Part shown: piece by piece, positions 263 through 56,279 of the stretch
Layout: each line of letters begins with the position of its first letter
How positions within the stretch are numbered: position 1 is the stretch's first letter
Assembly (NCBI GenBank): GCA_964414145.1
Contig: CAYPVH010000008.1
Coordinates: forward strand, 17,369-81,368
Origin: an uncultured Gammaproteobacteria bacterium
Lineage (GTDB): Bacteria > Patescibacteriota > Microgenomatia > UBA1406
Reading direction: 5' to 3'
DNA length: 64,000 bases
Notes under the pieces: generated by a model
What the model was told of the DNA's origin: nothing
Databases searched by the model: none
What the model saw: the letters and a program-made list of their open reading frames with translations, nothing else
Translations under genes and position numbers: made by a program

Positions 263-3200
263 ATGATTTTCATAATGCACTATATTAATAGTATTATAAA
301 CAAAGTTAAAAAAAACCCACTATTCTTTGTTTTATTACTCATTCTTCTAATAATCACGCTTTTTAATCTAAAACCAGATTTTTATTTAATGGGTTGGGAT
401 AACTATTCTTCATACCTCAATATTAAAGATAATTTTTTTAGAACACTTTTTTCAACTTGGAGAGAATACAGAGGATTGGGGGTTCCGTCTGACTCGGAAG
501 TTACAGATATCTTCCGTTTAGGTCTGTTTGCTTTACTAAAGCCTATTATTCCTACTCAGTTACTTGATCAACTCTACTATTTACTCTCTCTAAACCTAGG
601 AGTCCTTGGAATGTATGCGTTAACAAGAGAATTAGTAAAAAAAATCGGCAATAGTACTCTAAAAGAAAATATAAACATATTTTCTTTTTTTAGTGCCTTT
701 TTTTATTTATTCAACCTTAATACACTGGCTGTATTCTACTTTCCGATGACAATGTTTGTTAGCCGGTTTTTTAGTTTACCCTTGTTATACCTTGTTTTCC
801 ACCAATTAATTTACAGCAAAAAATTAAGCTTTAAAAAAAATATTTTATTTGTAGCATTGCTTTTCTTTATTAGCGGTAGTTTTTTAGTCCCCACCGTATT
901 CGTTGCTTTAATAATCGCCCTGCTTCCTTATTTAATCACGCAAAGAAACCTGAAGAAATCCCTTCTTGTAGGCCTTGTTTTTATACTAATTAACTCATTT
1001 TGGCTCTTCCCTTTTGTTAATTACATAAAAGAACGTTCAAACAATGTCAAGCTAGCTTCAACTTTTATCGACGGTAATGAAGATTTTCTAAACAAAAATC
1101 CAGAATATTATTCTTTTCGAAGACAGTCATTAGTTACGCCGCAGTTTTTCGAAATGAAGTATACAGAAACAGGCAGCAAGCAAACCAAATTTTTTCATCC
1201 CTTGGCCGAAAAGTTAAATCGCTACCCCAATAACTTTATTTATTTATATCTGTTTCCTCTTCTTTACTTAGCTGGAGTAGTTATTACAGTTGTAAAATTT
1301 AAAAGGAAGAAAGAATGGTTATGGGTTCCGGTAACTTTACTTACTTTTCTATTTTTGTCTTTAAAAGAACATTCCTTTTTAGGCACACTTTACTTTCTGC
1401 TAACTAAATATATACCTTTCTTTGGTGTTATATTTCGTTATGGAGACACAAAGTTTCATGCATTGGTAGCGTTTTCCGGAAGCATAAGTGCCGCTATTGC
1501 CATAGTCTATCTTTATAAATACATCAACAGAAAAGAAGTAAAACAAAAACTTGTTTTATTTATTCTTAGTCTACTTATTATTCCTCACCTGGTTTTATTT
1601 AAGGAATATTTTACCCGTAACTTAGTAGGTTTCTTTATGTATAACAAAATTCCTAAGGCGTATTTTCAAGTTGCCAATGTAATTAATAATGATAAAGAAG
1701 AAGCCAGAGTACTTCACCTGCCAATCGATAAAAATAACTATTACTGGAAATCATATACCTGGGGCTACTTTGGCTCCGCCTTTTTCCAATATATGTTAAA
1801 CAAACCCTTAATTGACAAAACCTTTTTACCAAGTAGTTTGGAAAACGATTACTATATAGAACAAATTAATACCTACTTCAAAAATATCAGCGGCTCAACA
1901 AATCAAAAATTAATCAACAACCAGGTTGAAGAACTAGCTAAACTAATTAGAAAGAGCAATGTGAAATATATACTGTTAGACGAAAGCGTTAGTAATAGTG
2001 TTCCTTCTCGTAATATGACCTTCTGGGGTACTAATACCATTACTGAAGAAAAAAGGGCTATAAAAGGCTTATTACAAAAAGGCTTAATAAAAAAATTAGA
2101 AAACTACACTATTAACTTAGACAAAGAAGCAAACTACAGCAAGCTTTACCCGTATAGCCAGGCTAACTTTCCCAAGGAGAAAGATAAAAAATCTAATTTA
2201 GGTTTGTATGAAGTAAAAGACTTTCAGGGAAAGGTTTCGTTCCCAGAAAAGACTGAGTTATTAGATTATAACTTCGACAGGCCCCTGAAAAATATCGCCA
2301 GCGCCTACACAACACATTTCATGCAAAAAAAGGATTGGGCAGGAACTATATGGCCATTTCGCTATACAGATGGCTTAATAAATATTAAAAACGGTGAGCT
2401 AGAGTTTAATATTCCTGCAGACACAAGTAGCAAAAAATATAGACTAGAATATGAGTTAAATAATCTGGAGCAATTAAGTAATATTGTTGATATCTACACA
2501 GAAGTTAAAGCCAAAGAATTAATAGTATCGCTCTACTTAAAAGTGTTTCCCGACATAAACGGGCAAACATTCCAAAAACCACTAAAAACATTAAGAATAC
2601 CCATTAAAAAATTTAGTTTAAATAAGTCAGTTAAAGAGAGTCCAAAAAACGCCCTTAACAACTGGACAGAACTGGAAAACAACGTTTATAAAAACATTCG
2701 CCTGCGTATAGGAGAAATCACCGTACCAATTCCAATTAATAACAATCAGCCAAGTTACGCCGGAAGTGTTATGGTTAGAAACAATAATTTTTTAGTTGAA
2801 GTATTAAGCGAGTACTTAAACATCACTATTCCCCTGGAAAATTTTCAGACAATTAACAACCCCGATTGCTATAATGATGCCCTAGCCGACTATCAAAGCA
2901 CCTCTCAAGCTAACGCCGACGCTCTGGCAGTTATTGCTCAAAACGGCTCAAGCTGTTTTGCAAACACCAACCTTGTGCCCGAAGAATACCCCGATGTTTC
3001 CCACGCCGAAATTCACCTTGTTGCCCAGGGTAGTTCGGAAGACTTGGATTCGCTTTACTGGAAAAACAACAAAACAGGGAAAAGCAGTTTAGTTAAAGCT
3101 TTGCAAACCTTGCCAAAGCCAAGTCATTTAAAGATATGTTTTAAAGAAAAAGGGCTTGACGAGTGCTTAAATTATAAAGATATTAATTTACCCCTAGAGC

Positions 3201-4339
3201 CCAAAACCTTTTTAATTCCTATTGATAAACAAATAACCGATTTAAGAAATTATGAAATATTTTTAGGGTTAAGAAATATTGGCTACCAAAGGCAAAATAT
3301 GATTATTAACAATATGGTGGCCAGGCTTTTTAAAACCGAATACAGCGAAAAGGTAAGTTTTAACAAAAGTAAATACGTTACAGAAATTGATTTAACAAAA
3401 GGCAGTAATATCGTCTTTAGTATGCCGATTGTATTAAACCCAAGTTCTCAAAAAATAGATATCAAAACTAATTCTTTTTATTTTCACAACCAACTTTGTG
3501 AAAACTATTCAACTTTCAGACTGGTGGAACAACAGTTACTTGGGTACCACAACAGTTGCGAAAATGTATTATTTAGCCGCCTACCCTTTTCCAGTAACAG
3601 CTTTTATATTTGGCATATTAACTATAACCTGCTTAGCGGTCAATTTCCCTTCATTATTATGGAAGACACGATGCACCAATATAAGTACGAACGTACTTCA
3701 ATCAACCAAAATTATCCAGATATTCCAAATTTTGGTTCTTTAAACTTTATTACTCCCCTAACCACACAAGAGTCACTCTTCTATAAATTCTATGCCTTAC
3801 CCCAAGAAACCAGTTACAGCTACATATATCCCAAGAGCTATTTGAAAGACAGCAAAAACAAAAGTTATTTCTTTAAAGAATATAGCGAAAACGAAGGCAT
3901 GTTTGCCTTGTCTGCTTTCAATATTGTTGAACTACCAAATTACTGGTCAAATCTAAAGTTGGTACCACCAAATAATGAGCAAATATATAGTGCTCCGCAG
4001 AGTTATAGTTTTAAAAAACTACTCCCTTCCCTTTGGCAAATTGACATAACCAGTGAAAGCAACGAAAAAGTTCTGCTTTTCTTTAATGAAGGTTTTGATC
4101 GGCAATGGGGTTTATATGAAAAACTTAGCGATTCAGTTGTAGGGAAAAAGACAGCTACTTCTATTCGTTGCGACGGTTTTGCCAACTGTTTTGAATTTAC
4201 ACCAAAAAACAATCGCTACTATATTTTTTACTCTCCCGAACTTTTGAGTATCATTGGGTGGCTTTTTAGCATTTTTGGTAGTTTAAGTTTGATTATCTTC
4301 TTTAGAAAGAAAGAAACCTTACCCGAAACCAAGCTTTGA
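263..4339 (+). CDS. 1358-aa polytopic membrane protein with a large extracytoplasmic domain; putative GT-C / AftD(DUF3367)-like glycan-building enzyme
   Basis: Longest ORF at this locus. Many hydrophobic helices lie in the first ~460 aa (PLFFVLLLILLIITLF, FFYLFNLNTLAVFYF, LFVALLFFISGSFLV...). It has an N-terminal MGWDNYSSYL..WREYRGLGVP motif and a single C-terminal TM (LLSIIGWLFSIFGSLSLIIFF). The family assignment is by recollection only. Confidence 0.6.
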   Translation: MIFIMHYINSIINKVKKNPLFFVLLLILLIITLFNLKPDFYLMGWDNYSSYLNIKDNFFRTLFSTWREYRGLGVPSDSEVTDIFRLGLFALLKPIIPTQLLDQLYYLLSLNLGVLGMYALTRELVKKIGNSTLKENINIFSFFSAFFYLFNLNTLAVFYFPMTMFVSRFFSLPLLYLVFHQLIYSKKLSFKKNILFVALLFFISGSFLVPTVFVALIIALLPYLITQRNLKKSLLVGLVFILINSFWLFPFVNYIKERSNNVKLASTFIDGNEDFLNKNPEYYSFRRQSLVTPQFFEMKYTETGSKQTKFFHPLAEKLNRYPNNFIYLYLFPLLYLAGVVITVVKFKRKKEWLWVPVTLLTFLFLSLKEHSFLGTLYFLLTKYIPFFGVIFRYGDTKFHALVAFSGSISAAIAIVYLYKYINRKEVKQKLVLFILSLLIIPHLVLFKEYFTRNLVGFFMYNKIPKAYFQVANVINNDKEEARVLHLPIDKNNYYWKSYTWGYFGSAFFQYMLNKPLIDKTFLPSSLENDYYIEQINTYFKNISGSTNQKLINNQVEELAKLIRKSNVKYILLDESVSNSVPSRNMTFWGTNTITEEKRAIKGLLQKGLIKKLENYTINLDKEANYSKLYPYSQANFPKEKDKKSNLGLYEVKDFQGKVSFPEKTELLDYNFDRPLKNIASAYTTHFMQKKDWAGTIWPFRYTDGLINIKNGELEFNIPADTSSKKYRLEYELNNLEQLSNIVDIYTEVKAKELIVSLYLKVFPDINGQTFQKPLKTLRIPIKKFSLNKSVKESPKNALNNWTELENNVYKNIRLRIGEITVPIPINNNQPSYAGSVMVRNNNFLVEVLSEYLNITIPLENFQTINNPDCYNDALADYQSTSQANADALAVIAQNGSSCFANTNLVPEEYPDVSHAEIHLVAQGSSEDLDSLYWKNNKTGKSSLVKALQTLPKPSHLKICFKEKGLDECLNYKDINLPLEPKTFLIPIDKQITDLRNYEIFLGLRNIGYQRQNMIINNMVARLFKTEYSEKVSFNKSKYVTEIDLTKGSNIVFSMPIVLNPSSQKIDIKTNSFYFHNQLCENYSTFRLVEQQLLGYHNSCENVLFSRLPFSSNSFYIWHINYNLLSGQFPFIIMEDTMHQYKYERTSINQNYPDIPNFGSLNFITPLTTQESLFYKFYALPQETSYSYIYPKSYLKDSKNKSYFFKEYSENEGMFALSAFNIVELPNYWSNLKLVPPNNEQIYSAPQSYSFKKLLPSLWQIDITSESNEKVLLFFNEGFDRQWGLYEKLSDSVVGKKTATSIRCDGFANCFEFTPKNNRYYIFYSPELLSIIGWLFSIFGSLSLIIFFRKKETLPETKL

Positions 4340-5184
4340 AAATAGAATAGCTTTTTTAGAAATCGATACACATTCCAGTTAATTTGTGGTGAAATTAAAA
4401 GCCCGGCTGCAAGTTGTACCATCCAGTACAAATGAACCCATAAAGGAGCGCTATTTATTCGTTCATCAACCCATAGATGCATTTTGTAGGTGCTGATAGC
4501 TAAAGTTCTAAAGTACTTAACCGAAGCCATGCTTTTGTGCCACCTAACCTTGACCAGTACCTTTTGTAGGTTTGCCAGCTGGCCTTCTTGGCCCATTCGG
4601 ATCCATAAATGAGTATCATCTGCCGGCCACATTGCCTGGTCGTATCCACCTACCTTTAGGGCAATGGCTTTAACAAACATTACCGACGGGTCGGCAAAAG
4701 GACTAACAATATGCCACATTTTGCGGATGTCTTGGTCTTTTTCAATAAATGTAATTACTTCTTGACTATCACTAAAGTACTTTATAAAAGAGCCAAGAGC
4801 CACAATTTCTGGGTGGCTTTCTAAATAATCTACTTGGGTTTTTAGCCGGTTTTTTAGCATAATATCATCTTGATTCAGCCGGGCAATATATTTACCCCTG
4901 GCTTTTTTAAGAGCATAGTTTAAGGTTCGCCCCAAGCCTCTGTTTTTAACAAAAGAATAAAAATGTATTTTTTTGGACTGGCGCACAAGTTGTTTACAGA
5001 TTCTTTTACTTTCGTCGGTAGAACCGTCGTCTACAAGAATAATTTCGTATTTTTTGTATGTGCTTTTTAATACTGATTCTACCGCTTCTCTTAAATATGT
5101 GGCACCATTAAAAACCGGTATTACTACCGAAACTAAAGGTATTTGACTTTTTTTACTGATCTGTTTTTCTTTTTGTTTTTTCAT
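4228..5184 (-). CDS. family 2 glycosyltransferase
   Basis: N-terminal GT-A signature VSVVIPVFNGATYLREAVESVLKSTYKKYEIILVDDGSTDES and a later NQDD (DxD-like) motif. The 3' end overlaps the convergent 263..4339 ORF by 112 nt. Confidence 0.85.
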   Translation of the reverse strand: MKKQKEKQISKKSQIPLVSVVIPVFNGATYLREAVESVLKSTYKKYEIILVDDGSTDESKRICKQLVRQSKKIHFYSFVKNRGLGRTLNYALKKARGKYIARLNQDDIMLKNRLKTQVDYLESHPEIVALGSFIKYFSDSQEVITFIEKDQDIRKMWHIVSPFADPSVMFVKAIALKVGGYDQAMWPADDTHLWIRMGQEGQLANLQKVLVKVRWHKSMASVKYFRTLAISTYKMHLWVDERINSAPLWVHLYWMVQLAAGLLISPQINWNVYRFLKKLFYFQSLVSGKVSFFLKKIIKLKLPKMLKSHPMILKSSGE

Positions 5185-5239
5185 ATTTTTTATTCTCTTT
5201 TTAAATATTGGGAACCTTCTGATAGCTAAATTTACTTAA

Positions 5240-5282
5240 CTAGCAAAAGGCTCCCCTGCCCACCTATCCAAGGTGGGCAGGG
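5240..5282 (-). terminator. GC-rich stem-loop downstream of the high-GC gene
   Basis: A 12-bp perfect stem, ccctgcccacct (5254-5265) / aggtgggcaggg (5271-5282), with a 5-nt loop. On the minus strand it is followed by GAGCCUUUUG, a short U tract. Confidence 0.5.
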
Positions 5283-5311
5283 CTAGGTTAGCCAGGGAAC
5301 GATTGGGTGGT

Positions 5312-5974
5312 CTACTTGACCGCGACGGCCCAGAAGGCCGTGCAGCCGGACCAGGTGTCGTCCGTTCGCAGCGGAACTCCCGCCGCAAACGGAACCTGGA
5401 TGTAGACGCGGCCCAAGGTGGTCGTATCCAGCAGACTCGGGTCCATGACGTGGCTGACGTCTGCCGGCGGGTCGACGGCCGTCGCATCGGGGCACCACAC
5501 CAACCAGGCGTAGTGCTGATCGAGCACGAGCGTGCCCGTGGTCACCACCGTGGTGGCACCTACCGCGACCGCTTCTGCCTGGATGGCGGCGACTGCCGCC
5601 TCAATCTGGACCTGGCTGACCTGGCCGGGGATCCGCAAATAATCCGCCACCAGCTTCGTCTGCCCGGTGGGCAGAAGGACGCCCCCCGTCTCGTCGTACT
5701 TGAGCATGACGGGGGCCCCCGGGTCGGGGGTGACGACGGGCTGCGCCGCGAGCAGCGCCTGGGCCGCGAGATAGTCCACAAACGCATTGCAGACTTCCTC
5801 AACGGCAGTGGCAAACTCGGTCGGGAGCACACTCCTGTCCATCGTACAGAGGGCGACCATGCGCTCCTCAAACGTGGGCGGCGTGGCCCCTTGGGCCATG
5901 GCGCTAGCGGGCACGATGGCCACGCACAGCATTACAACCACGATAACAAACGACAGGACCTTGGACTTGAACAT
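5312..5974 (-). CDS. secreted hypothetical protein encoded by a high-GC foreign-looking gene
   Basis: ATG at 5974 is preceded by GGAGG (5983..5979). Signal-peptide-like N-terminus MFKSKVLSFVIVVVMLCVAIVPASAMAQG. This is the only frame in the GC-rich block with a start, an SD and a signal peptide. The other long ORFs in the block are typical high-GC artefacts. Confidence 0.7.
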   Translation of the reverse strand: MFKSKVLSFVIVVVMLCVAIVPASAMAQGATPPTFEERMVALCTMDRSVLPTEFATAVEEVCNAFVDYLAAQALLAAQPVVTPDPGAPVMLKYDETGGVLLPTGQTKLVADYLRIPGQVSQVQIEAAVAAIQAEAVAVGATTVVTTGTLVLDQHYAWLVWCPDATAVDPPADVSHVMDPSLLDTTTLGRVYIQVPFAAGVPLRTDDTWSGCTAFWAVAVK

Positions 5975-6385
5975 GTTGCCTCCTTTCAAGGCAGTGAAAT
6001 TTTTGGTTTTGGGCCCGCTCGTTCAGCTTGCCCTCCCCGTACTAATAATTACGTTTTAACTACTAATACGGGGAAAGCAAAACACGAATAGCTACAAGCC
6101 CAAATTGCCAAAAAAAGAGAGGCTTTTTCTAAATTCCCTGACTCCGCCATAAGCTCAGTTTTACAACTTCGCATATTGGCGGATAGCAATCAGTAATCCA
6201 ATCCCTTACGGGTTTGGAAACTTCTTGCTACAACCTTTTAAAGAGCGACTGTTCTTTAAGAGTGGCAGAGTGCAATACCTTGCTCCCTAAAAAGAACGCT
6301 CTATATGTTTCTATTAGTGGCTGCTGCTTGTTCCAAGGAGCAATTCCTTGGATCCGCACTGCTTCCAATATATAGAAACACTATC

Positions 6386-6414: not shown

Positions 6415-6510
6415 GTAGTATTTTTACTACACTAAATTGGATGGTAAAAGCAAGTAAATTAGACATTATGTAGTTGGTAAAACAACTATAAGTTATGTAA
6501 AATTTATTAA

Positions 6511-6895
6511 CCGATTAATCAATTATGAATTACGAATTGCGGATTAAAAACACCACTACGTGGATTAATCATTAGTCGATTATGCATTACGAATTGAGAA
6601 TTAGTGATATCACATAAATACAATACAGGTGAGAAGTAAGGAATTAAATATAAAACCGGTAAGGAGGATTTAAGAAATGCTTCGTGGATAAGGAAAACTG
6701 CTTACTAAGATTTACCTATTTGTCAATTATGAATTACGGATTATGAATTAGTTAGACCAATACGTGGACTATCTATTAATCAATTACGGATTACGCCCCG
6801 ATACCAGAGCAAAGCACGGTACGGGGTAAAAATTGCGGATTAAAGAACTACTATGTAGATTAGTCAATTGCGGATTTCGAATTACGGATTAATCA
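6511..6895. repeat. array of degenerate 7-bp-period (heptad) repeats with interspersed short hairpins
   Basis: Runs such as aattatg aattacg aattgcg gattaaa (6521-), attatgc attacga attgaga (6580-), aattatg aattacg gattatg (6726-), aattgcg gatttcg aattacg gattaat (6866-). Confidence 0.7.
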
Positions 6896-6986
6896 AACCA
6901 ATGCAAAAACAGGGAATCCAAAAATCTGTATCAACAACACCCAATCGCTAATAGCTTAATTAGTTCGTTTTATATAAAATCATAGT

Positions 6987-7367
6987 ATGAAATACAAAGA
7001 TTTTGAAGAACTGCCTGTATGGAAAGAAGCTATAACACTGACTAAGGTAATATATGACCTAACAGCAAAGAAAACTTGGCGAAAAGACTTTGGTTTAACA
7101 AACCAGATTAGGCGAGCCGTTGTTTCTATAAGTTCTAACATTGCTGAAGGTTTTGAAAAAAGAAACAATAATGAATTATCTAGGTACTTAAGAATAGCTA
7201 AAGGATCTGTTGGTGAAGTTAGAAACCAACTGCTTATTGCAAGCAATATTGGTTATATAAGTGAAGAAGAGCTTAAAGAAATAAAAGATAAGCTAATAAA
7301 GCTTTCGAAAAACATTGGTGGCTTTATTAATTACTTAAGTAAATACAAGAAGCTTAAAAGCACTTAA
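6987..7367 (+). CDS. four-helix-bundle protein (23S rRNA intervening-sequence protein / Avd-like family, PF05635-type)
   Basis: Family hallmarks: FEELPVWKEAITLTKVIY, NQIRRAVVSISSNIAEGFEKRNNNELSRYLRIAKGSVGEVRNQL, ISEEELKEIKDKL. Typical ~125-aa size. Confidence 0.9.
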   Translation: MKYKDFEELPVWKEAITLTKVIYDLTAKKTWRKDFGLTNQIRRAVVSISSNIAEGFEKRNNNELSRYLRIAKGSVGEVRNQLLIASNIGYISEEELKEIKDKLIKLSKNIGGFINYLSKYKKLKST

Positions 7368-8644: not shown

Positions 8645-10114
8645 ATGAAAATTGCCGTACTTGGTGCCGGAATTGCTGGTTTAACTGCTGCTTTAGAACT
8701 AAGCAAGCAGGACCACGAAGTATTGGTGTTTGAAAAAAATAAGTTGCCCGGGGGCGCAGCAGGGGGCTTTAAACAGAGCGGCTGGGATTGGTACCTAGAC
8801 TACGCTTACCACCACTTATTTACCAATGACGGTGATATTCTTAATTTAGCCAATGAGATTGGTTTTGACGGGTTGATTAAGAAAAGGCCAATAACGGCAA
8901 GCATGTACAGAAATTCGAAATTCGAAGTTCGAAGTCCGAAACAAATTCCAAATTCCAAGTATTCCAAACCCTCCGATTCGGAGGGCATGCCCACCGAATC
9001 GGAGGGCAAACAAAAAACAAATTCAAAATTCAAAGCTCAAAATTTATTTAATTATCTTTTTGGGGAGGATACGGAGATATATAAGCTGGACAGCCCGGTT
9101 GACTTAATTAAGTTTAGCCGTTTAAGTTTAGTAAACCGTTTAAGAGCGGGAATGGTACTGGCAGCGCTAAAGTTTGGACCAAAAGTAGACCTATACGACA
9201 AAATAACTGCCAGCCAATTTTTAAAAACTTCGATGGGCCAAGAAGCTTATAAAGTGCTTTGGCATCCCCTTTTTGCCAAAAAATTTGAAGATTATAAAGA
9301 GAAAATAAACATGGCCTTCTTTTGGGCCAGGGTAAATAAACGCACCCCCGCCCTGGTTTACCCCAAGGGGGGCTTTCAGAACTTTGCCAACAAGCTGGCA
9401 AGTTATGTTGAAAAACGAAAAGTGAAGATACACTACGGAATAAAAATTGAAGAACTAAGGCAAAGTAATTCGAAATTCGAAATTCGAAATTCGAAATTTG
9501 ACAAGGTTATTTCTACCCTGCCTTCACCCTTGTTTTTGCAAATTGAGAAAGGGGTTTTACCGCAAAATTACCGAAATCGGCTGGAAAAAATTGAATACCT
9601 AGGGGCACAAAACCTAATTTTAGAAACAGAAAAACCAATTCTAGACAAAACATACTGGTTAAATATAGCTGCCAGCCCTACTTCGCTTGAGAAATCTACC
9701 CCTTTTGGGCTTAATTGGATGGTAGCGGTACAGCACACTAATTTTATGAATAAAAAGCATTATGGCAACAAGCATTTGCTTTATTTGGCGAAATACTTAA
9801 AAGAGCCAATGCCAATTAAACAATTAGACAATTACGGATTACGGACCTGTCCTCCAAATCGGAGGATTACGGATTACAAAGACAATAATTCGAAATACAA
9901 AATTCAAAATAGATTAATTAAAATTATTCAAAATAATTTTGTTAAGTATGCTCAACCGCTATATACCCCTGAGTTTGTTAAAAACAAGCCCGACTACACA
10001 ACCCCGGTTAAAGGGCTATATTTTGCCACCATGGAACAAACGTACCCTTATGACCGAGGCACCAATTTTGCCGTGCGGGTGGGGAAAGAAGTGGCCAAAA
10101 TCATAGGAATATAA
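8645..10114 (+). CDS. NAD(P)/FAD-dependent oxidoreductase (phytoene desaturase / amine-oxidase-like), carrying three in-frame repeat insertions
   Basis: Rossmann motif MKIAVLGAGIAGLTAALELSKQDHEVLVFEKNKLPGGAAGG at the ATG 8645; the track ORF starts at an upstream GTG (8612). The C-terminus YFATMEQTYPYDRGTNFAVRVGKEVA is typical of the family. Confidence 0.8.
   Translation: MKIAVLGAGIAGLTAALELSKQDHEVLVFEKNKLPGGAAGGFKQSGWDWYLDYAYHHLFTNDGDILNLANEIGFDGLIKKRPITASMYRNSKFEVRSPKQIPNSKYSKPSDSEGMPTESEGKQKTNSKFKAQNLFNYLFGEDTEIYKLDSPVDLIKFSRLSLVNRLRAGMVLAALKFGPKVDLYDKITASQFLKTSMGQEAYKVLWHPLFAKKFEDYKEKINMAFFWARVNKRTPALVYPKGGFQNFANKLASYVEKRKVKIHYGIKIEELRQSNSKFEIRNSKFDKVISTLPSPLFLQIEKGVLPQNYRNRLEKIEYLGAQNLILETEKPILDKTYWLNIAASPTSLEKSTPFGLNWMVAVQHTNFMNKKHYGNKHLLYLAKYLKEPMPIKQLDNYGLRTCPPNRRITDYKDNNSKYKIQNRLIKIIQNNFVKYAQPLYTPEFVKNKPDYTTPVKGLYFATMEQTYPYDRGTNFAVRVGKEVAKIIGI
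8911..9043. repeat. heptad repeats plus two CCTCCGAWTCGGAGG-type palindromes inserted in frame in the oxidoreductase gene
   Basis: aattcga aattcga agttcga agtccga ...; ccctccgattcggaggg (8969-8985); gcccaccgaatcggagggc (8989-9007). Translated as NSKFEVRSPKQIPNSKYSKPSDSEGMPTESEGKQKTNSKFKAQN. Confidence 0.75.
9467..9499. repeat. (AATTCGA)x4 heptad run inside the oxidoreductase gene
   Basis: aattcga aattcga aattcga aattcga aattt, translated as NSKFEIRNSKF. Confidence 0.8.
9831..9910. repeat. heptad repeats flanking a CCTCCAAATCGGAGG palindrome inside the oxidoreductase gene
   Basis: attacgg attacgg acctgt cctccaaatcggagg attacgg attacaa ... aattcgaaatacaaaattcaaaat, translated as NYGLRTCPPNRRITDYKDNNSKYKIQN. 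Confidence 0.75.
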
Positions 10115-10281
10115 GAATTTGAGAATATAAGAATATAGGAATGAGCATAATAACCAAGATCCAAATAACCCCACTACGTCCGCCTGACAGGCGGACTACG
10201 AGGGGCAAGTCCTCCGAATCGGAGGACAAGCTCCTACGCTCAGGATGACATATATATAAACAAAACTCGAGATTCGATTAT
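10115..10281. repeat. intergenic member of the heptad/palindrome repeat family plus a 40-nt dispersed block
   Basis: Palindromes gtccgcctgacaggcggac (10178-10196) and gtcctccgaatcggaggac (10209-10227). The block aggatgacatatatataaacaaaactcgagattcgattat (10242-10281) recurs at 33140-33179 with 4 mismatches. Confidence 0.7.
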
Positions 10282-10335
10282 GTACATAAGCTAAATCTAG
10301 GCTATTAATAGTACTTAAAATATGAATCTTGAGAC

Positions 10336-10358: not shown

Positions 10359-10441
10359 GCCGGAGTGGCGAAATGGCAGACGCGCACGATTCAGGGTCGT
10401 GTATCCGCAAGGATGTGGAGGTTCAACTCCTCTCTCCGGCA
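10359..10441 (+). tRNA. tRNA-Leu (anticodon CAG)
   Basis: Folded by hand. Acceptor GCCGGAG/CTCCGGC; anticodon stem CACGA/TCGTG with loop TTCAGGG; long variable arm TATCCGCAAGGATG; T-arm GGAGGTTCAACTCCTC. Confidence 0.95.
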
Positions 10442-10596
10442 CAGTCTAATAATCAACTTGCTTTCAATCTTTGTGGAGGTTTCCCGATACGCTTCGCTTT
10501 ATCGGGATCCGTTTTCCGTAAGCTATTTTTTTACTTATCAGTCAAAACTGGCAACGGCAAACCTAACAATTCCTCTTTCCAACGCTCTGGTTTTTG

Positions 10597-14553: not shown

Positions 14554-14560
14554 AATGGTA

Positions 14561-14668
14561 TTCCCGCCAAAGGCGGGCAGGCCCTCCGATTCGGAGGGTT
14601 TGGAAATTGTTTTTTGGGTTTTAGTACTTTGATATTATTTCGGATTTCGATATTCGGATTTCGAGTTT
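14561..14668. repeat. heptad/palindrome repeat family member
   Basis: cccgccaaaggcggg (14563-14577), gccctccgattcggagggt (14581-14599), then tttcgga tttcgat attcgga tttcgag (14636-14668). Confidence 0.7.
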
Positions 14669-14711
14669 ATATTGTATATTATCTACTGAATATTGGATAT
14701 TAACTCTTGTT

Positions 14712-17075
14712 CTACAGTCTGGCTCGCTGGTTAATTTCTTGCTCTACCAGTTCTTTGGGTTTACCGTATTTAAGACTTGAAAGCTGGGCTACGGCGTCGG
14801 CAACTTTTTTATTTCGCTTTTTAGCCTCTTTAGCCATGTCTTTGCTCATATCTACATAGAAAGGCGAAACCGGATCGTTATCTATATTCGTTTTCATATA
14901 GGCACTAAAGCGCTCAATGTTTAAAAAGTCTGTTTCGTTGAAGGTTGGCTGAAATTCGTGTTGTAAATAATTGGCGTCAGTTACCCCAACCCGGAAGCCA
15001 ATAATAGTACCTACATTACCAAAAATAGCATTTTTAACTTCCTCGTCCATCTGCCCGATAAACTGATTGGCCACAACCAAGTTAAGCCGGTACTTTCGCG
15101 CCTCAGACAAAATGGTGGCAAAGTCTTGGGTAGCAAAATTTTGAAATTCGTCGACATAGAGAAAAAAGTCTTTTCTGTCTTCCTCTGGCATATCGGCTCG
15201 ACTCATGGCCGCAGCCAAAATTTTAGGAATTAGCACTAGCCCCAAAAAACTAGAGTTTTCTTCGCCTAGCTTTCCTTTAGACAAATTAATTATTAAAATT
15301 TTACCCTCATCCATCACCTTTCTAAAATCGAATGAACTTTTAGATTGGCCAATAATGTTTCGAACGCTTTTATTTGTAACAAACCGGCCAAACTTAGAAG
15401 CAATGTAGTCTAAAGTTTCGGATTTGTGAAAATCGCTGGTTTGGGCAATCTGATCGGTCCAGTAGCGCCGTATAATTGGATCCTTAACTTTTGGCAACAG
15501 TTGATTAACAAACTTAGGGTCGGTTAGAATACGGTTAACCTCAATAAAAGTATTGCCCTCTTCAGCCATAACCGTAAGCATGGCGTTTCGCACTGCGTGT
15601 TCAAACCGCGGACCAACAATTCCCGTTCGTTGCGGGTCGTATAGTTTATACATTAAGTTAATAATGGCGCTCGCCATGAAATGCTGTTGTTCTTCGGTAT
15701 GCGCTTCCATAATATTTAGACCCATTGGCCGTTCTGCGTTTGACGGATCAAAATAGATTACGTCTTCGGCCCGCTCGGGTGGAATAAATTCGAGTAATGC
15801 TTCGGCGGCATCGCCATGTGGGTCTATAAAACACAAACCCTTGCCATTATTAATGTCTTGGGAGAGCATCGACACTAAAAGTTGTGTTTTACCTACACCC
15901 GTTTTACCAATAATATAAACATGACGGCGGCGATCATTTTCACCAATAAAAACAGGGACTCTTTGACCTCTATACTTGGAAAAGCCGATAAAAATGCCAT
16001 CATTGGGCATATTGGCTGGCGCTGCAGCCCGCTTGGCTTTTAACCACTGAATATTTGGTGTTTCGATAGTTTTATTGGGAAAGTGGTAAAGACTAGCCAA
16101 CTCATCGGCGGCAAAAATCGATATACTTTGCCATCGCCAAAAATCCATTAAGGGGAATGTTCGATAGATAAAACCTAGCATGAAAAGGGGTTTAAGTAAA
16201 ATCCGTACCTTAGTAAAACTATTTAAGTCTGAGTTAAGTTGGGTAAAAGCGCCTTTAATGTTCTGGAGATGCATCGTAGCCATTTGCTTGTCGGGGCTGT
16301 TAACAACAAATCTAATTACCGTTTCAAAACCGGGTTTACTGCACTTGTCATCAATTTTGTCTAGAGTTTTTTGGTCTACCTTGTATGTGGCCTTTTCCGG
16401 GTTGGTTTCTTTTTTACGCATGTCGGAAACATAATCTTTACCTGCCTTTTTCCAGGAAGGTTCGGCCGGTCGAATTAAAAACTGAACAATTGCCCCCTCT
16501 TCTTGACCCATTTTAGAAAGCGCACTAATTAGGGCAGCCATTGAATCATTGGCAAGTTCTTTGTAGGTACGAATGGGATAATAAGCGGCTTCTTTTTGCC
16601 GTACCGCGCCGTACACCACCTTGCCATTTTTGGTGAAAACATTGGGTTCGTCGCAAACGGTAATATCGGCACTGGTATAGTTGGCATAGATCTGTTTTTC
16701 CACTAAATCTTTTAGCCTACTGGGAACGTGCAGATAAAAATCAATTTTGCCGTAGGAAGAAACCACTTCAAAAGCTAACGTTTCTTCAAGATTTATTTTG
16801 TGCATTAGTTTGGAAAAATAGTCATAGCTGTTCTTAAGTGAATAAAGCGAAGTGAATAGCTGTTCGGCAGCATCGATTTTAATTTCATTGTCTTTGGGTA
16901 ACCTTACCTTTAGAACTACCATGTCGAGTGCCCGCTCTTCCCGTTTCCCCATTTTATTTAAAACTATTGCCAACTGAAAAAGCAAAAATACTACTCCTGC
17001 CAGAGTAATTGCAGTAAAGAGCAGTAATACATAATACTGAGCTCTGATAATCGCTTCACCAGCTAATAATTCCAT
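14712..17075 (-). CDS. type IV secretion coupling-protein-like ATPase (VirD4/TraD/TraG family)
   Basis: N-terminal TM (YYVLLLFTAITLAGVVFLLFQLAIVL). Walker A HVYIIGKTGVGKTQLL. Walker B FFLYVDEFQNF. ARKYRLNLVVANQF is typical of the TraD/VirD4 C-terminal region. Confidence 0.75.
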   Translation of the reverse strand: MELLAGEAIIRAQYYVLLLFTAITLAGVVFLLFQLAIVLNKMGKREERALDMVVLKVRLPKDNEIKIDAAEQLFTSLYSLKNSYDYFSKLMHKINLEETLAFEVVSSYGKIDFYLHVPSRLKDLVEKQIYANYTSADITVCDEPNVFTKNGKVVYGAVRQKEAAYYPIRTYKELANDSMAALISALSKMGQEEGAIVQFLIRPAEPSWKKAGKDYVSDMRKKETNPEKATYKVDQKTLDKIDDKCSKPGFETVIRFVVNSPDKQMATMHLQNIKGAFTQLNSDLNSFTKVRILLKPLFMLGFIYRTFPLMDFWRWQSISIFAADELASLYHFPNKTIETPNIQWLKAKRAAAPANMPNDGIFIGFSKYRGQRVPVFIGENDRRRHVYIIGKTGVGKTQLLVSMLSQDINNGKGLCFIDPHGDAAEALLEFIPPERAEDVIYFDPSNAERPMGLNIMEAHTEEQQHFMASAIINLMYKLYDPQRTGIVGPRFEHAVRNAMLTVMAEEGNTFIEVNRILTDPKFVNQLLPKVKDPIIRRYWTDQIAQTSDFHKSETLDYIASKFGRFVTNKSVRNIIGQSKSSFDFRKVMDEGKILIINLSKGKLGEENSSFLGLVLIPKILAAAMSRADMPEEDRKDFFLYVDEFQNFATQDFATILSEARKYRLNLVVANQFIGQMDEEVKNAIFGNVGTIIGFRVGVTDANYLQHEFQPTFNETDFLNIERFSAYMKTNIDNDPVSPFYVDMSKDMAKEAKKRNKKVADAVAQLSSLKYGKPKELVEQEINQRARL

Positions 17076-17286: not shown

Positions 17287-18129
17287 TTACCAATTCTTGC
17301 CCGGCGCATAAGTAATGCCGCCCAAAACATAAACAGGTTGCATAAAGTAAAGTGGGGCGTAAGCATTTGAACCGGCAGAAGTTACCGAAATAAAGTAATT
17401 CAGTTCTCTAACAATCTGGTTATCTAGTTCTTGAACCTGGGCTTGCGAAGTAATTTTAGTGCCTTGGGCCGGAAAAGTAGCATTATTAATACTGTTAAAA
17501 ACAACTCCGACTTCGTTCTGATAGGCCGGAAATAGAACCAAATAATTATGATTAACGGTTGGGATAATGGTGGGTAAAGCTAATGTGGTTGAGTAATTTG
17601 TAGTTATTTCGCCGTTTGCACAACCACTGCTAACCCCACTTGTACCGTTTATAAACCTAGGGTTTTGAGACGCAGAACTGTTTATAACATAAGCTCGGTA
17701 AAGTTTACGTACGCCATTATCTGTATAATAATGAGCCGCAACAAAAGAAGTGTTGGGCTTATCCCAACAAAGTCTAACTTGATTTTGATTATAGCCGTTA
17801 AGATTAAAAATAAAACCTTCACCCGAATTTAACTTAACAGGTAATGTAAAGTGAGTTTGCCCGCTTTGAATATTAGTGCTAACATCTACGTTTGCTCGGC
17901 CAACATTTATTGAACCATCGGGATTGTCACCCTCTAGTATTTTTTTAAGTGCGTCTTCTATACCCGATTCTGCCGCATAATAAGCTTCTTTACTTTTTTG
18001 TTCAAGTGTAGCTTTTTTTTGCTCATATATAACTTGGGTCACCACGGAGGCCCCAATTACAGAGAATACCCCTAAAATAAGGAGGGTAATGATCACAATT
18101 TGTCCGGCCTGTTTTTTGCTATGTTTCAC
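17287..18129 (-). CDS. PilX-N-like pseudopilin/minor-pilin-like protein
   Basis: N-terminus KKQAGQIVIITLLILGVFSVIGASVV followed by KEAYYAAESGIEDAL, matching the PilX N-terminal pattern (hydrophobic anchor ... AfyaAEaG). Confidence 0.5.
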   Translation of the reverse strand: MKHSKKQAGQIVIITLLILGVFSVIGASVVTQVIYEQKKATLEQKSKEAYYAAESGIEDALKKILEGDNPDGSINVGRANVDVSTNIQSGQTHFTLPVKLNSGEGFIFNLNGYNQNQVRLCWDKPNTSFVAAHYYTDNGVRKLYRAYVINSSASQNPRFINGTSGVSSGCANGEITTNYSTTLALPTIIPTVNHNYLVLFPAYQNEVGVVFNSINNATFPAQGTKITSQAQVQELDNQIVRELNYFISVTSAGSNAYAPLYFMQPVYVLGGITYAPGKNW

Positions 18130-32926: not shown

Positions 32927-33520
32927 AATTAAGATTTTAAGAATACAAGAATTTAAAACAAGAGTTAGGATTTAAGAGCTATAAGTTACGGGTTACTAGT
33001 TGCGAGTTGCGGGTTGTGATAAAGACCAAATAATTTACAGTTTAGAGTTAATAAATAGAATGCAAAGACCTGTCATGTTGAGCGCCAGTGAAACATCCCA
33101 TAGGATCCTTCGGTCGTTCGCCTAAGGCGGACTCCCTCGAGGATGACGTATGTATAAACAAAACTCGAAAGTCGATTATCGAAACCAGAAATAATACTAA
33201 ATCTAAGAATCTTATAGATTCAAAATAGAATGGTAAATGTTTTGATATTGATTTTTTAGTAATTTAAATTTGCTTCGGATTTTTATTACATTGGATACTT
33301 TTGGGATTCTTCGCTCCACTCAGAATGACACAGGCTAGATTGTTGAATGGTTAAATTGCTATATTTATTCATTGTTAAGTATAAACAATCAATTTTGAAG
33401 CTCGAATTTTGTCCGTCAGCCACCGAATTGAATGAATCCATAATCCATAATCCATAATTCGTAATTCATAATGGATAAATAGATTAATTGTTTCATTGCT
33501 TCATGGCTTCATTGTTGAAT
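32927..33520. repeat. ~0.6-kb non-coding tract packed with heptad repeats, GC hairpins and dispersed blocks
   Basis: ttaagaa tacaaga attt..., agttacg ggttact agttgcg agttgcg ggttgtg (32985-), atccata atccata atccata attcgta attcata (33446-), gtcatgttgagcgccagtgaaacatcc, gggattcttcgctccactcagaatgacac, and the 40-nt block 33140-33179 shared with 10242-10281. Confidence 0.7.
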
Positions 33521-45998: not shown

Positions 45999-47672
<1,674 letters not shown>

Positions 47673-52841: not shown

Positions 52842-54707
52842 TTAGCCATCAATAAGTGCTTTTTCATGTTCTGCTGCCAGCACTTTGACTGCTACATGCG
52901 ACGGACCAGCAAAGAATAGACCTTCACCGACGCCAGAGGATAGTAGAAAATGCTTTTCACCACTAGTTAAGTAGAAAATTTCAGTAAGTTTATCAACCGA
53001 AACGGGGGATTGCTTTAAGAGTATTTGAATACTAGAGTTTGTTATTATTGCTCTACCCTCATTTGTAGATAAAAAGTCTTCAACATCTTGCGTTATGGTA
53101 GTTAACCCTAAGCCATATTTTCTTGCTCTTTTTGTGAAATTATATATATATTCTGCCGAGTCTTTTTGTTTAATTAAGTACCATGCCTCATCGATAATTA
53201 ATAATCTCTTCTTTTTTTCATGCCTAATTTTTGTCCAGATATAATTTAAAATGATATACATCGCCACTGGCCTAAGATTATCTTCTAAATCCCTAACGCC
53301 AAAAACTGTAAACTTATTTTTAAAAGAGAAGTTGGATTGAGCATTAAAAATTCCCGAAGCCGAACCTTTAATAAATTTTTCAAATTTAAAAGCCATATTT
53401 TGAGATGCTTCTTGTTCCATACCAATAAATACTTTATACAAATCTTCCAAAAGGGGCGGTTCCTTTGTATGTGTTGTTGAATCCTGGGTTATACCTCTTT
53501 GTTGATAGGTAAGAATTAGTGCCTTGTCTAAAAGTGCGTCCTCTTCAGGTGTCAGCTCACCCATGATAACCTTCATCAGAGTATGTAGAGAAAGAACATT
53601 GTTTGCCAAGGCGTCTTCACCTTCTTCTTCAACAGGTAAGTCAAAAGGATTAATCCTAACTGGAGAACTTCCTGTAAATTCAACATAGTCACCTTCAAAT
53701 TTTGTACAAATGTTTTTATACTCGTTTTCTGGGTCAATAATAATAACTTCAGTACCAACCATCAGTTCTCTCATCACCTCTAGTTTTATCATGAAACTTT
53801 TACCACCTCCCGACTTACCCAAAACCACCATATTAGCGTTTTCCAAGCTAAAACGATCAAAGATAACTAAACTAGAATCAGATTGGTTAACTCCATACAA
53901 AATGCCTTCCGACATTGTTAAAGACGATGTAATAAAAGGAAAAGTCATAGCTAAAGAAGTTGTATCCATATTGCGCCAAACATTTTGCTTATCCATAAAA
54001 AGTGGTAAAGTTGATTTAAATCCTTCCTCGACTTCTAGAATTGATCTTTTAGATATTATTAATAACGAGGAAAGCGTACTCTCAACTTCTTTTGTGATTC
54101 GCTCAAGCTCGTCTTTCGTTTCAGCCGGAACTGTGATATATAAACCATACTGAAAAAATCTTTCTGCCCCTTTGGCAATTTCCGCCTGAAGCCCTAGCGC
54201 GTCATCCAGAGCTACCTGAACTGTTGGATCAACTACTTTCCCTTTTTTAATTTCGCTTTCCAGCGTTGCCTCCATTTCGGCAATTTTTCTTTTAAGATCA
54301 TCTAAAACTACTTTTGATTGTGTTGGATATATAAACATCGAAACAACTAGAGGGTGATCAAAGGTTATTAAAGAATGAAGCCAATTAGGACCAACATATC
54401 TTGGATAACCAACCACAAACAGGGTAGTGTAGTAGGTATCGTTAACCTTTAAATGTGAAAAGTCTACTTCCACATAAGAAGGGGCTACAATATCTGATAC
54501 ACTTGTTAAACCTAAGGCAAACTTACTGGCAATCTTATCTGTTTTTACTGCCTTTTTTTGCTCTTCGTTTGCCTTTTTAGGCACCACCTGTTTATCAACT
54601 GTCTGATCCTGAACTTTTTCTTCACTAACCTTTGCTTCAGTACTAGCTTGTTTTGCTGTTGATTTAGTTTCTTCAGTATTGCTATTTTTTTTGCCAAAAT
54701 TAAACAT
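52842..54707 (-). CDS. VirB4/TraC/TrbE-family type IV secretion ATPase
   Basis: Walker A MVVLGKSGGGKSFMIK, Walker B RLLIIDEAWYLI, GLGLTTITQDVEDF. N-terminal domain IVAPSYVEVDFSHLKVNDTYYTTLFVVGYPRYVGPNWL is typical of VirB4 homologues. Confidence 0.8.
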   Translation of the reverse strand: MFNFGKKNSNTEETKSTAKQASTEAKVSEEKVQDQTVDKQVVPKKANEEQKKAVKTDKIASKFALGLTSVSDIVAPSYVEVDFSHLKVNDTYYTTLFVVGYPRYVGPNWLHSLITFDHPLVVSMFIYPTQSKVVLDDLKRKIAEMEATLESEIKKGKVVDPTVQVALDDALGLQAEIAKGAERFFQYGLYITVPAETKDELERITKEVESTLSSLLIISKRSILEVEEGFKSTLPLFMDKQNVWRNMDTTSLAMTFPFITSSLTMSEGILYGVNQSDSSLVIFDRFSLENANMVVLGKSGGGKSFMIKLEVMRELMVGTEVIIIDPENEYKNICTKFEGDYVEFTGSSPVRINPFDLPVEEEGEDALANNVLSLHTLMKVIMGELTPEEDALLDKALILTYQQRGITQDSTTHTKEPPLLEDLYKVFIGMEQEASQNMAFKFEKFIKGSASGIFNAQSNFSFKNKFTVFGVRDLEDNLRPVAMYIILNYIWTKIRHEKKKRLLIIDEAWYLIKQKDSAEYIYNFTKRARKYGLGLTTITQDVEDFLSTNEGRAIITNSSIQILLKQSPVSVDKLTEIFYLTSGEKHFLLSSGVGEGLFFAGPSHVAVKVLAAEHEKALIDG

Positions 54708-55379: not shown

Positions 55380-56279
55380 TTACAATGCAAATATTTTAAT
55401 ATTTTCTGCTGATTCGTTTAATTTCATTTTAGCAAAATGGTACTTTTTTTTAGGATCCTCAAGCTCTATGAAATAGTCCCCTTTTGGCAGCGGTAGATTA
55501 TTTTGAAAAATCCCATTGCTAGCCGTTTTAAACAACCGAACCGTTTCAATGCCTTTCTTTATATATACTAATATATTCCCAAGCGGAACACCACCTGAAG
55601 ACAAAACAACTCCCGAAACGGTAATAACACTGCTGCTATTATTCACCTCTTTGCTACCAATATTTATGGTTGTGAAATTACTTTCCAGCCTGTCGTTATG
55701 TAGATCTGGATTCACTTTAATTCCGCTAACCAAATTTTCATTTATATTTGAGGTCGTTGGTGAAACTCGCTTTTCTTCTGTTCCCTCAGTAGTAGGTGAA
55801 GCAAACATTAAGGATTGTAGTTTACTTTTTTTTTGTTCAAAGCTTTGATCTATATCTTCAAGTTTATCTTTCAAATCTTCTCTGGGTTTTTTTTCAAGAT
55901 ATTCATTAAGCTTTTGCTGAGCCTTAATGTGCTCAATTAACACTTCTCTCGGTGGCAAGGTTATTCCAAGTAATATTTTGGGTGGTAGATTATTTTTCTT
56001 AAAATAATACTGCGTTGGCGATGTTAACCGCTTAAATAAATTTTTCAGCCAAATGTCTAAGGGCCTTTCGTTAATTGGCACAAAGGCAAATCCAATTCCA
56101 ATAGCCACCGGCACTGCAGCAACAATAAAATTCAATAAAAAAATATTTGGAATTAAAAAAAATAATATTACACCAAATACAGCCCCAAAAGCCAAATAAC
56201 CGAATTGCTTTATTGTTAATTCACCAATTAATTTAAATTCAAATGTTGTTATTTGCCTTGGTACCGGATGCTCTTGCAT
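55380..56279 (-). CDS. PrgI-family (VirB3-like) T4SS membrane protein with a C-terminal CarboxypepD_reg-like beta-sandwich extension
   Basis: VPRQITTFEFKLIGELTIKQFGYLAFGAVFGVILFFL followed by a second TM: the PrgI pattern. C-terminal VSGVVLSSGGVPLGNILVYIKKG. Confidence 0.6.
   Translation of the reverse strand: MQEHPVPRQITTFEFKLIGELTIKQFGYLAFGAVFGVILFFLIPNIFLLNFIVAAVPVAIGIGFAFVPINERPLDIWLKNLFKRLTSPTQYYFKKNNLPPKILLGITLPPREVLIEHIKAQQKLNEYLEKKPREDLKDKLEDIDQSFEQKKSKLQSLMFASPTTEGTEEKRVSPTTSNINENLVSGIKVNPDLHNDRLESNFTTINIGSKEVNNSSSVITVSGVVLSSGGVPLGNILVYIKKGIETVRLFKTASNGIFQNNLPLPKGDYFIELEDPKKKYHFAKMKLNESAENIKIFAL

Follow-up and report, generated by a model that had tools for sequence, protein, structure and literature searches.

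The 64-kb stretch of contig CAYPVH010000008.1 analyzed here, below referred to as the window, encodes an FAD-dependent oxidoreductase whose gene contains repetitive DNA at three sites. The repeats are of two kinds, i.e., arrays of a seven-nucleotide (7-nt) unit, referred to as heptads, and G+C-rich palindromes, and both kinds are also found between genes. In a preliminary description of this DNA it was held that these repeats fill the intergenic regions and that they were inserted in frame at the three sites. The presence of the repeats at all three sites was confirmed, the frame of 489 codons is intact as had been stated, and the low-complexity peptides are those that had been quoted, i.e., NSKFEVRS..PSDSEGMPTESEG at site 1 (which spans residues 89-133), NSKFEIRNSKF at site 2 and NYGLRTCPPNRRITDYK at site 3. 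The word "fill" overstated the intergenic occupation, which is restricted to about six spacers. The data discussed below make it rather probable that sites 1 and 3 are in-frame repeat additions, that site 2 is a structural microsatellite, and that the gene is not decaying. The features considered are the following, with the type of evidence in brackets.

8645..10114, plus strand: gene of the FAD-dependent oxidoreductase, PRK07233 family; intact open reading frame (ORF) of 489 amino acids (aa)
8910..8968, plus strand: left heptad arrays of site 1 (Tandem Repeats Finder, TRF; period-7 scan)
8969..9010, plus strand: core of site 1, two tandem 21-nt palindromic modules (TRF, fold, sequence)
9011..9044, plus strand: right heptad array of site 1, AAATTCA type, encoding QKTNSKFKAQN (TRF, period-7 scan)
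9467..9498, plus strand: site 2, a perfect (AATTCGA)x4.6 tract encoding NSKFEIRNSKF, aa 275-285 (TRF, 100% matches)
9827..9898, plus strand: site 3, a 72-nt (24-codon) segment encoding DNYGLRTCPPNRRITDYKDNNSKY (codon-threaded alignments)
9846..9866, plus strand: 21-nt palindromic module CCTGTCCTCCAAATCGGAGGA within site 3, hairpin at 9850-9866 (sequence, hairpin scan, palindrome match)
9867..9910, plus strand: heptad array past this module, composed of ATTACGG, ATTACAA, AGACAAT, AATTCGA, AATACAA and AATTCAA (TRF)
10103..10290, plus strand: repeat cluster after the oxidoreductase stop codon (palindrome, TRF, hairpin, blastn and fold evidence)
14560..14702, minus strand: intergenic copy of the site 1 composite element (blastn)

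The oxidoreductase ORF is uninterrupted and starts at the same ATG as its orthologues. The protein matches the hidden Markov model NF005560 (PRK07233) of NCBIfam with 308 bits at a cut-off of 252, carries the GxGxxG dinucleotide-binding motif at its N-terminus (MKIAVLGAGIAG) and has the protoporphyrinogen-oxidase/phytoene-desaturase/amine-oxidase fold, all in agreement with membership in the PRK07233 family; the Pfam matches are Amino_oxidase and NAD_binding_8. The AlphaFold2 model has a mean predicted local distance difference test (pLDDT) score of 89.6 and a predicted template modelling score of 0.88, and the best solved structures found with Foldseek are 2ivd and 5mog (protoporphyrinogen oxidase, phytoene desaturase; E about 1e-22). 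The orthologues carry the names Roizmanbacteria or Patescibacteria, most of them with a length of 415-440 aa; the host is a Roizmanbacteria-like bacterium of the Candidate Phyla Radiation (CPR)/Patescibacteria. Among species-representative genomes, no orthologue closer than that of UBA1406 (52% identity) was found. The closest relative, on an independent contig of the Joint Genome Institute (L001; orthologue contigs are denoted by such numbers), is 84% identical in amino acids and 85% in nucleotides over 285 codons. Its synteny is the same, with a DUF11/CLIPPER protein on one side of the gene and tRNA-Leu and a UbiA prenyltransferase on the other, an arrangement that recurs in relatives. Over these 285 codons the ratio of nonsynonymous to synonymous substitutions (dN/dS) is 0.16, or 0.13 without the repeat sites, at a dS of 0.54, and the window protein retains 43/43 of the invariant columns in an alignment of 119 orthologues. 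As judged from these comparisons, the gene is functional and under purifying selection, and the suggestion in the preliminary description that it might be decaying is rejected. A promoter and terminator scan of the gene gave no enrichment, and none of the palindromes received a terminator call.

Site 1 has a composite architecture. The left arrays consist of GAAATTC x4.6 (8910-8941) followed by CAAATTC x3.6 (8942-8968) and encode NSKFEVRSPKQIPNSKYSK. The two modules of the core, CCCTCCGATTCGGAGGGCATG and CCCACCGAATCGGAGGGCAAA, encode PSDSEGM and PTESEGK, and a 21-nt period is reported by TRF at 8969-9008. These modules pair with each other as a 38-nt hairpin (8969-9006), with an RNA folding energy of -31.6 kcal/mol (z = -7.7), and the CAAA found directly 5' of the pair is repeated at its end, at a spacing of 42 nt. 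In distant orthologues (35-37% identity), the anchors of site 1 are separated by 3-4 residues, as compared to about 50 in the window, where the segment is the longest among all 119 orthologues (57 residues; the runner-up has 41). According to these alignments, site 1 is an insertion relative to the family. Furthermore, the DNA at 8911-8995 aligns with the intergenic sequence at 14668-14572 on the minus strand over 97 columns (blastn E = 2.3e-11), and because this alignment includes the non-palindromic flanks (TTCCAAACCCTCCGAWTCGGAGGGCMTGCCCRCC), site 1 is best read as a copy of a dispersed element. A search with the 48-aa peptide of site 1 in an index of 5.8 billion proteins gave no match, as none of the candidates had three words of five residues in common with it, and this outcome carries no weight as negative evidence. 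The heptads of site 1 probably predate its palindromic modules, because heptad-like sequence is already found at this position in L004, L007 and L010, the last of which has (AGTTCGA)x3.6 followed by a different hairpin.

At site 3, codon-threaded alignments were used, as the DNA alignment to L001 obtained with MAFFT was poor. They show that the 24 codons are missing from L001, L002, L004, L005 and L008, and on this basis site 3 is an insertion relative to the 84%-identical L001 gene. The CCTGTCCTCCAAATCGGAGGA module (folding energy -11.7 kcal/mol) is located exactly between ATTACGG units such that its removal restores (ATTACGG)x3, and GGA is repeated at a distance of 21 nt around it. The array that follows, where TRF reports tracts at 9878-9924 and 9887-9910, resembles the right half of site 1 and the sequence at 33420-33489 (blastn). 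A fourth length-variable loop, aa 342-356 (about 9668-9712; SPTSLEKSTPFGL), was also observed in the protein; it exceeds that of most orthologues by 8-10 residues and is shared with a subclade, and a repeat origin is not obvious.

The situation at site 2 is different. All three sites had initially been taken for insertions and were expected to map to surface loops of the structural model. This expectation may hold for sites 1 and 3, which the orthologue alignments identify as lineage-specific and which make up the only low-confidence stretches of the AlphaFold2 model (with pLDDT values of 44-57 for aa 91-130 and of 50-72 for aa 391-420, respectively). Both stretches are flanked by confident secondary-structure elements and may be disordered surface loops. 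Site 2, on the other hand, forms a confident beta-hairpin (strands 277-280 and 283-285 connected by a turn, pLDDT 97-98) and has the same length in 83 of the 119 orthologues, where the usual sequence is G-x-K-F-x-I-N-G-x-x-F. The heptad tract is found at the same position and with the same length in relatives down to about 50% identity, but the unit differs; it is AATTCGA in the window, AATTCGA alternating with AGTTCGA in L001, AATTTAA in L002 and L004, AATTCAA and AATTCGA in L005, and AGTTCTC in L007. Because the units are uniform within each lineage and different between lineages, the alignments indicate concerted evolution of a microsatellite that is re-homogenized in each lineage while its total length is held constant by the protein. 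Site 2 thus reads as an old heptad array in place of the ancestral beta-hairpin, which adds no length and is not an insertion. The variation in length that would mark a phase-variable contingency locus was not seen at site 2: the tract is equally long in the window, L001, L002 and L004, and the 83 orthologues mentioned above carry no indel.

The palindrome CCTCCGAWTCGGAGG is found in five copies in the window (at most two mismatches allowed), as compared to 0.02 expected. Three of them, with starts at 8970, 8991 and 9851, are in the oxidoreductase gene; the other two start at 10211, about 100 nt 3' of it, and at 14583, in an intergenic region. Tracts of period 7 number nine, as compared to 0.9 in Markov controls, while periods 5, 6 and 10 yield none, period 8 yields five and period 9 yields three. 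Four of the nine period-7 tracts are within the oxidoreductase gene and five are intergenic (at 6.5, 17.1, 18.2, 33.0 and 33.4 kb). The repeat-bearing spacers are those at 6.5-6.9, 10.1-10.3, 14.56-14.70, 17.1-17.3, 18.1-18.2 and 32.8-33.5 kb. The intergenic copy of the site 1 element at 14560..14702 displays, on the minus strand, the heptads AAAYTCGAAATCCGAA, then TTCCAAA, and then CCCTCCGAATCGGAGGG CCTG CCCGCC, and it has stops in five of six frames. No Rfam family was found over the repeats or over a G+C-rich island described below.

The cluster at 10103..10290 contains an 8-nt tandem (ATAAGAAT x5), the hairpins GTCCGCCTGACAGGCGGAC (10178-10196) and GTCCTCCGAATCGGAGGAC (10209-10227), and an arm headed by GTCATCC. 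Its tail is homologous to 33140-33231 (blastn E = 5e-9), and its RNA folding energy is -40.6 kcal/mol (z = -5.6). The ATAAGAAT tandem (10103-10142) overlaps the stop codon of the oxidoreductase gene and encodes the final residues, ..IIGI*. Beyond this cluster, tRNA-Leu(CAG) is found at 10359-10442 on the plus strand; in the syntenic L001 contig it is inverted (943-1026, minus strand), the surrounding spacer is remodelled, and the repeats are present in the window only. Another spacer, at 6500-6900, has dense AATTACG-type heptads, and a 31-nt hairpin (CCCCGATACC...GGTACGGGG, 6795-6825) is found within these arrays. Directly 3' of this spacer is a free-standing gene of a 23S rRNA intervening sequence protein (PF05635, E = 6e-34; 6987-7367).

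In-frame hairpin repeats are also found at the matching loops of other orthologues, but they are unrelated between lineages. In L005, one repeat encoding LLRH.P..LAMTT is present at both site 1 and site 2, while L006 has a nested hairpin insert of 36 codons at site 2, containing CGTCCTCCGATTCGGAGGACT, and in L010 a large insert includes an 18-nt x4 tandem. The L010 orthologue (gene 491-2107) has 540 aa, and its site 2 is composed of a heptad tract, a large nested hairpin and the in-frame 18-nt x4 tandem, encoding (GVTAAP)n; the label of this record, "uncultured Gammaproteobacteria", looks like a mislabel of a CPR bin.

The occurrence of the palindrome beyond this gene family was examined by scanning public metagenome contigs with the 19-mer GTCCTCCGAWTCGGAGGAC, i.e., the intergenic variant at 10209, which is also present in L006. 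The 74 loci found correspond to 56 distinct contexts, 50 of which are on low-GC contigs. Among these 50, the 19-mer is surrounded by short ORFs only in 41 (counted as intergenic), is flanked by an open frame of at least 100 aa on both sides in six, and is near the N-terminus of a long ORF in three. The coding share of about 12-18% is to be compared to a coding density of about 88% in the window, so genes are strongly depleted of GTCCTCCGAWTCGGAGGAC without being entirely free of it. Four hosts were identified by Pfam: alanyl-tRNA synthetase (AlaRS), a class-I synthetase similar to valyl-tRNA synthetase (ValRS), a GT2+GT1 glycosyltransferase and an M23 peptidase (L038, L082, L054 and L070). In the AlaRS the Pfam match of the catalytic domain continues across the insert, and across hosts the palindrome is read in all three frames. 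The ValRS-like protein has, in addition, a second repeat-derived peptide, ..DSRLRGNDK...

The 19-mer is nearly always found at the apex of a larger hairpin, e.g., gtcattgcgagga[..]gacgcggcaatc, gtcatcctga[..]gaaggatc or cccttccgaa[..]gaaggaggg, and in 47/50 contexts its flanks do not lengthen the palindrome. Identical dinucleotides are present on its two sides in 22/50 contexts (GA..GA, TC..TC, AA..AA), where about 8.6 would be expected if the sides were independent, which points to a net unit of 21 nt; the ValRS-like gene has two copies of AAGTCC at a distance of 21 nt. Heptad arrays are located beside hairpin clusters in L020, L046, L058 and L071, with inverted orientation around the hairpins in L020, and hairpins are found directly 3' of the site 2 array in L005, L006, L007 and L010. 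Because modules or hairpins recur within or next to arrays at site 3, at site 2 of these four orthologues and at 6795-6825, the sequences suggest that heptad arrays and hairpin apices are preferred landing places.

The preservation of the reading frame is related to the composition and length of these elements. All six frames of the palindromic core of 15-19 nt are free of stop codons, and the core is read as PSDSE/PSESE, PPIRR/PPNRR or LRFGG/LRIGG. The heptad units found in the gene (AATTCGA, AGTTCGA, AATTCCA, AATTCAA and ATTACGG) have no stop in the sense orientation; of the intergenic units, AATCCAT and TTAAGAT are not stop-free. In the sense direction, all three frames of site 1 are open, while in each of nine intergenic repeat segments no more than one of the six frames is. 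Furthermore, the palindromic modules have a length of 21 nt, which corresponds to seven codons and to three heptads, and they are flanked by direct repeats of 2-6 nt. The frame is presumably kept because the modules measure 21 nt and their palindromic core is free of stops. In other words, the repeat elements appear to be intrinsically gentle on reading frames, and selection would account for the remainder.

Parts of the coding sequence are thus made of a composite dispersed-repeat system that is common in this lineage, in which small G+C-rich palindromic modules (core CCTCCGAWTCGGAGG) interrupt A/T-rich arrays of heptanucleotides. From the above discussion, a mechanism may be outlined. Duplication of 2-6 nt at the flanks would make each module add exactly 21 nt. 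The modules would spread via a process that targets hairpin loops and heptad arrays, for which single-strand-DNA transposition and microhomology-mediated copying are candidate routes, and the heptad arrays would expand and be renewed through replication slippage, of which genes would tolerate only 21-nt steps. Selection would purge the copies that disrupt frames, such that the remaining copies are mostly intergenic and the intragenic ones reside in permissive loops. A more far-reaching proposal, which we regard as tentative and rather doubtful, is that these modules represent an ultra-small mobile system of CPR/Patescibacteria that has not been described before, in which codon-neutral 21-nt units home to hairpin apices and heptad arrays and thereby generate protein loops.

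A number of observations weigh against the view that mobile repeats entered this gene. No transposase family that could support the proposed mobility was found among the about 49 ORFs of the window (E <= 1e-3). Heptads and palindromes were found in none of the about 50 window ORFs except that of the oxidoreductase, so "colonization" of genes is rare in this genome and this family may be a special hot spot. At site 1, the insertion is covered by no relative closer than about 55% identity; its timing is less fixed than that of site 3 because the L001 contig begins 3' of site 1, and a metagenome scan for close relatives spanning the site gave 177 pattern matches, none of which was confirmed. The low pLDDT at sites 1 and 3 is partly explained by the scarcity of aligned homologous rows, which tempers the assignment of these segments to loops. 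The heptads of site 2 may have been inserted or may have been born in place from ancestral K-F...I...F (AAA-TTY) codons. Finally, the segments are known from an assembled contig, and an assembly error at a repeat is formally possible.

An explanation without any mobile element, in which the heptads are slippage microsatellites formed in place, the palindromes arose by local template switching or duplication, and their likeness reflects convergent mutational bias, is considered unlikely. It would fit the lack of a transposase match in the window, the ancestral length and hairpin residues (K, F, I, F) retained at site 2, and units that are lineage-specific and internally uniform, as slippage predicts. 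It is difficult to reconcile, however, with an exact 19-nt palindrome in 50 unrelated contexts on many contigs, with an alignment of about 97 columns between site 1 and an intergenic element that extends into non-palindromic flanks (E = 2e-11), and with net gains of exactly 21 nt accompanied by flanking direct repeats. The recurrence, the long alignment and the 21-nt gains therefore favor a template located elsewhere from which at least the palindromic modules were copied. In many orthologues the inserts recur at the same loops, which could also mean that the repeats are kept because they are useful, e.g., a hairpin in the mRNA at site 1 that tunes translation or decay, a heptad switch for phase variation, or a new interaction surface. 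A very stable hairpin inside an ORF (-31.6 kcal/mol) and a perfect 4.6-copy tract with a unit length that is no multiple of three would be in line with such a role. Nevertheless, we find it improbable: the site 2 tract is constant in length over the orthologues and encodes a folded hairpin, 4.6 copies are few for an efficient switch, copies of the palindrome are mostly intergenic, and the inserts at the same loops come from different, unrelated repeat families depending on the lineage, which speaks in favor of permissive sites and against a selected sequence.

The least credible explanation, to which we assign very little weight, is that of a pseudogene in decay or of an artefact from repeat-induced mis-joins in a metagenome contig. 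The exact protein is found on one contig only, and the oxidoreductase is the sole gene in the window with such repeats, as might be expected in that case. However, the intact 489-codon frame, the dN/dS of 0.13-0.16 and the complete set of invariant columns are not those of a decaying gene; the structural model is confident outside the inserts, the independent L001 contig confirms the site 2 tract, and analogous in-frame insertions are found on independent contigs, both in orthologues and in other genes. Addition of dispersed-repeat material to loops, combined with an old microsatellite at site 2, is the interpretation that we retain below.

Some other features of the window are reported for completeness. 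A G+C-rich island at 5250-5990 (about 60% by eye; 47% in the block 4001-6000) stands out from the contig of about 36% GC and could be a horizontal acquisition or a chimeric join. The likely gene in this island, 5312..5974 on the minus strand, encodes 220 aa with an N-terminal signal peptide (MFKSKVLSFVIVVVMLCVAIVPASAMA) and has no Pfam or Rfam match; a strong hairpin of 12 bp is located beyond it, at 5254-5282. Genes resembling those of type IV secretion or conjugation are found on the minus strand at 14715-17075, 17290-18129, 52845-54707 and 55383-56279, and the products include a VirD4/TraG-like coupling protein, a PilX_N protein, a VirB4/TraG P-loop ATPase and PrgI. The GroEL gene, on the minus strand, carries at its 3' end a perfect 18-nt x3.1 tandem (46005-46059), presumably the usual Gly-Gly-Met-type tail and ordinary-looking.

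CPR genomes are very small and streamlined, and the presence of selfish-looking repeats in working enzymes, among them aminoacyl-tRNA synthetases on related contigs, implies that streamlining is compatible with such parasitism. Insertion of repeats offers a concrete source for many of the lineage-specific insertions in CPR proteins, and the arithmetic of the 21-nt unit, i.e., three heptads or seven codons, a simple reason for entry into genes without breakage of the frame. In the beta-hairpin encoded by heptads, a microsatellite serves as structural coding sequence and evolves in concert, and the case is an unusually clean one. In annotation work, segments of CPR proteins that derive from repeats may be recognized by the peptide signatures SSESED, PPIRR/PPNRR, LRIGG/LRFGG and NSKFEIR; the peptides encoded by the repeat segments include PSDSEGMPTESEGK and CPPNRR. 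If the proposed mobile system exists, the modules together with 21-nt slippage of the arrays would be a general maker of new protein loops, even in aminoacyl-tRNA synthetases, and such modules could overwrite structural elements, e.g., the concertedly evolving microsatellite-encoded beta-hairpin.

A search of the available literature yielded no description of such repeats in CPR/Patescibacteria, but several known systems share parts of their anatomy. The small dispersed repeats (SDRs) of Nostocaceae, studied by Elhai and co-workers in 2008, are reportedly hairpins of 21-27 nt that nest in each other and in tandem heptamers. SDRs would provide the closest DNA anatomy, given that a 21-nt module is placed in register within (ATTACGG)n here and that nesting occurs at hairpin apices. 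Nesting of this kind is seen in the module at 9846-9866, in the site 1 pair between its arrays and in the 19-mer within larger hairpins. SDRs are not known to occupy enzyme genes in frame, nor is a heptad-encoded structural hairpin known from that system. The hosts differ, being cyanobacteria in one case and CPR here, and the likeness is one of anatomy; SDRs are reported to be absent outside Nostocaceae (PMC5861425).

Heptameric repeats are over-represented in bacteria and little studied; examples are the STRR (short tandemly repeated repetitive) sequences of cyanobacteria and GGGAATC of Xanthomonas and Nostoc (PMC4692102). As is the case for these simple sequence repeats, the arrays described here have a 7-nt unit that is over-represented, are mostly intergenic, with under-representation in coding sequence. 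Here, however, the units are A/T-rich and variable (AATTCGA, ATTACGG, AATCCAT), the arrays are coupled to G+C-rich hairpins, and one of them encodes a conserved structural element of an enzyme. A comparison to miniature inverted-repeat transposable elements may be based on the short flanking direct repeats (22/50 contexts as compared to about 8.6 expected; CAAA and GGA in the gene), but no parent insertion sequence (IS) was found in the window.

Repetitive extragenic palindromes (REPs) are dispersed palindromes of 20-40 nt, mostly located 3' of genes and occasionally within them; several species are on record as having intragenic REPs (PMC10969869, PMC3733652). The hairpins of 17-19 nt described here are similarly dispersed, with five copies in 64 kb and 50 low-GC metagenome contexts. 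In the metagenomes the 19-mer usually resides at the apex of a hairpin headed by GTCAT, often preceded by C, which resembles the layout of a CGTC tag with an AT-rich stem. The copies in the gene lack CGTC and GTAG, the hairpin at 10178 is preceded by ACGTCC, and many of the host hairpins in metagenomes begin with (C)GTCAT. The REP-associated tyrosine transposase (RAYT, IS200/IS605-type Y1) that accompanies GTAG REPs was not found among the about 49 ORFs of the window; the CGTC-tagged class of REPs, to which RPE-4 and RPE-6 belong, is without a dedicated transposase (Di Nocera et al. 2013, PMC3733652). In contrast to the repeats in the window, REPs have not been described as associated with heptad arrays or as having a net unit of 21 nt, and CPR are absent from the phyla listed in the REP survey (PMC3733652).

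In-frame insertion of palindromic repeats is established for the Rickettsia palindromic elements (RPEs; Ogata et al. 2000; PMC10969869, PMC3733652), nearly half of which are found inside ORFs in R. conorii (PMC10969869), and the preliminary description had drawn an analogy to these elements. The part of this analogy that stands is that members of this palindrome family recur in frame within unrelated genes on other CPR contigs. In both systems, selfish-looking palindromic repeats are present between genes as well as in frame within unrelated, often essential genes of a small-genome, host-dependent lineage, where they add a peptide without destroying the protein, and one element is read in different host proteins (translation of the repeats is here deduced from intact frames). 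The part that does not carry over is the anatomy. RPEs are single units of about 100-150 bp that encode a conserved peptide of 30-50 aa, whereas the elements described here are far smaller, i.e., nested 21-nt modules (42 nt as a pair) and 7-nt arrays that together form composite segments of 72-135 nt. In addition, the host belongs to CPR, not to Rickettsiales, and 41/50 contexts are intergenic. The analogy may thus be considered fair in the sense that these repeats would work like RPEs, rather than being members of that family.

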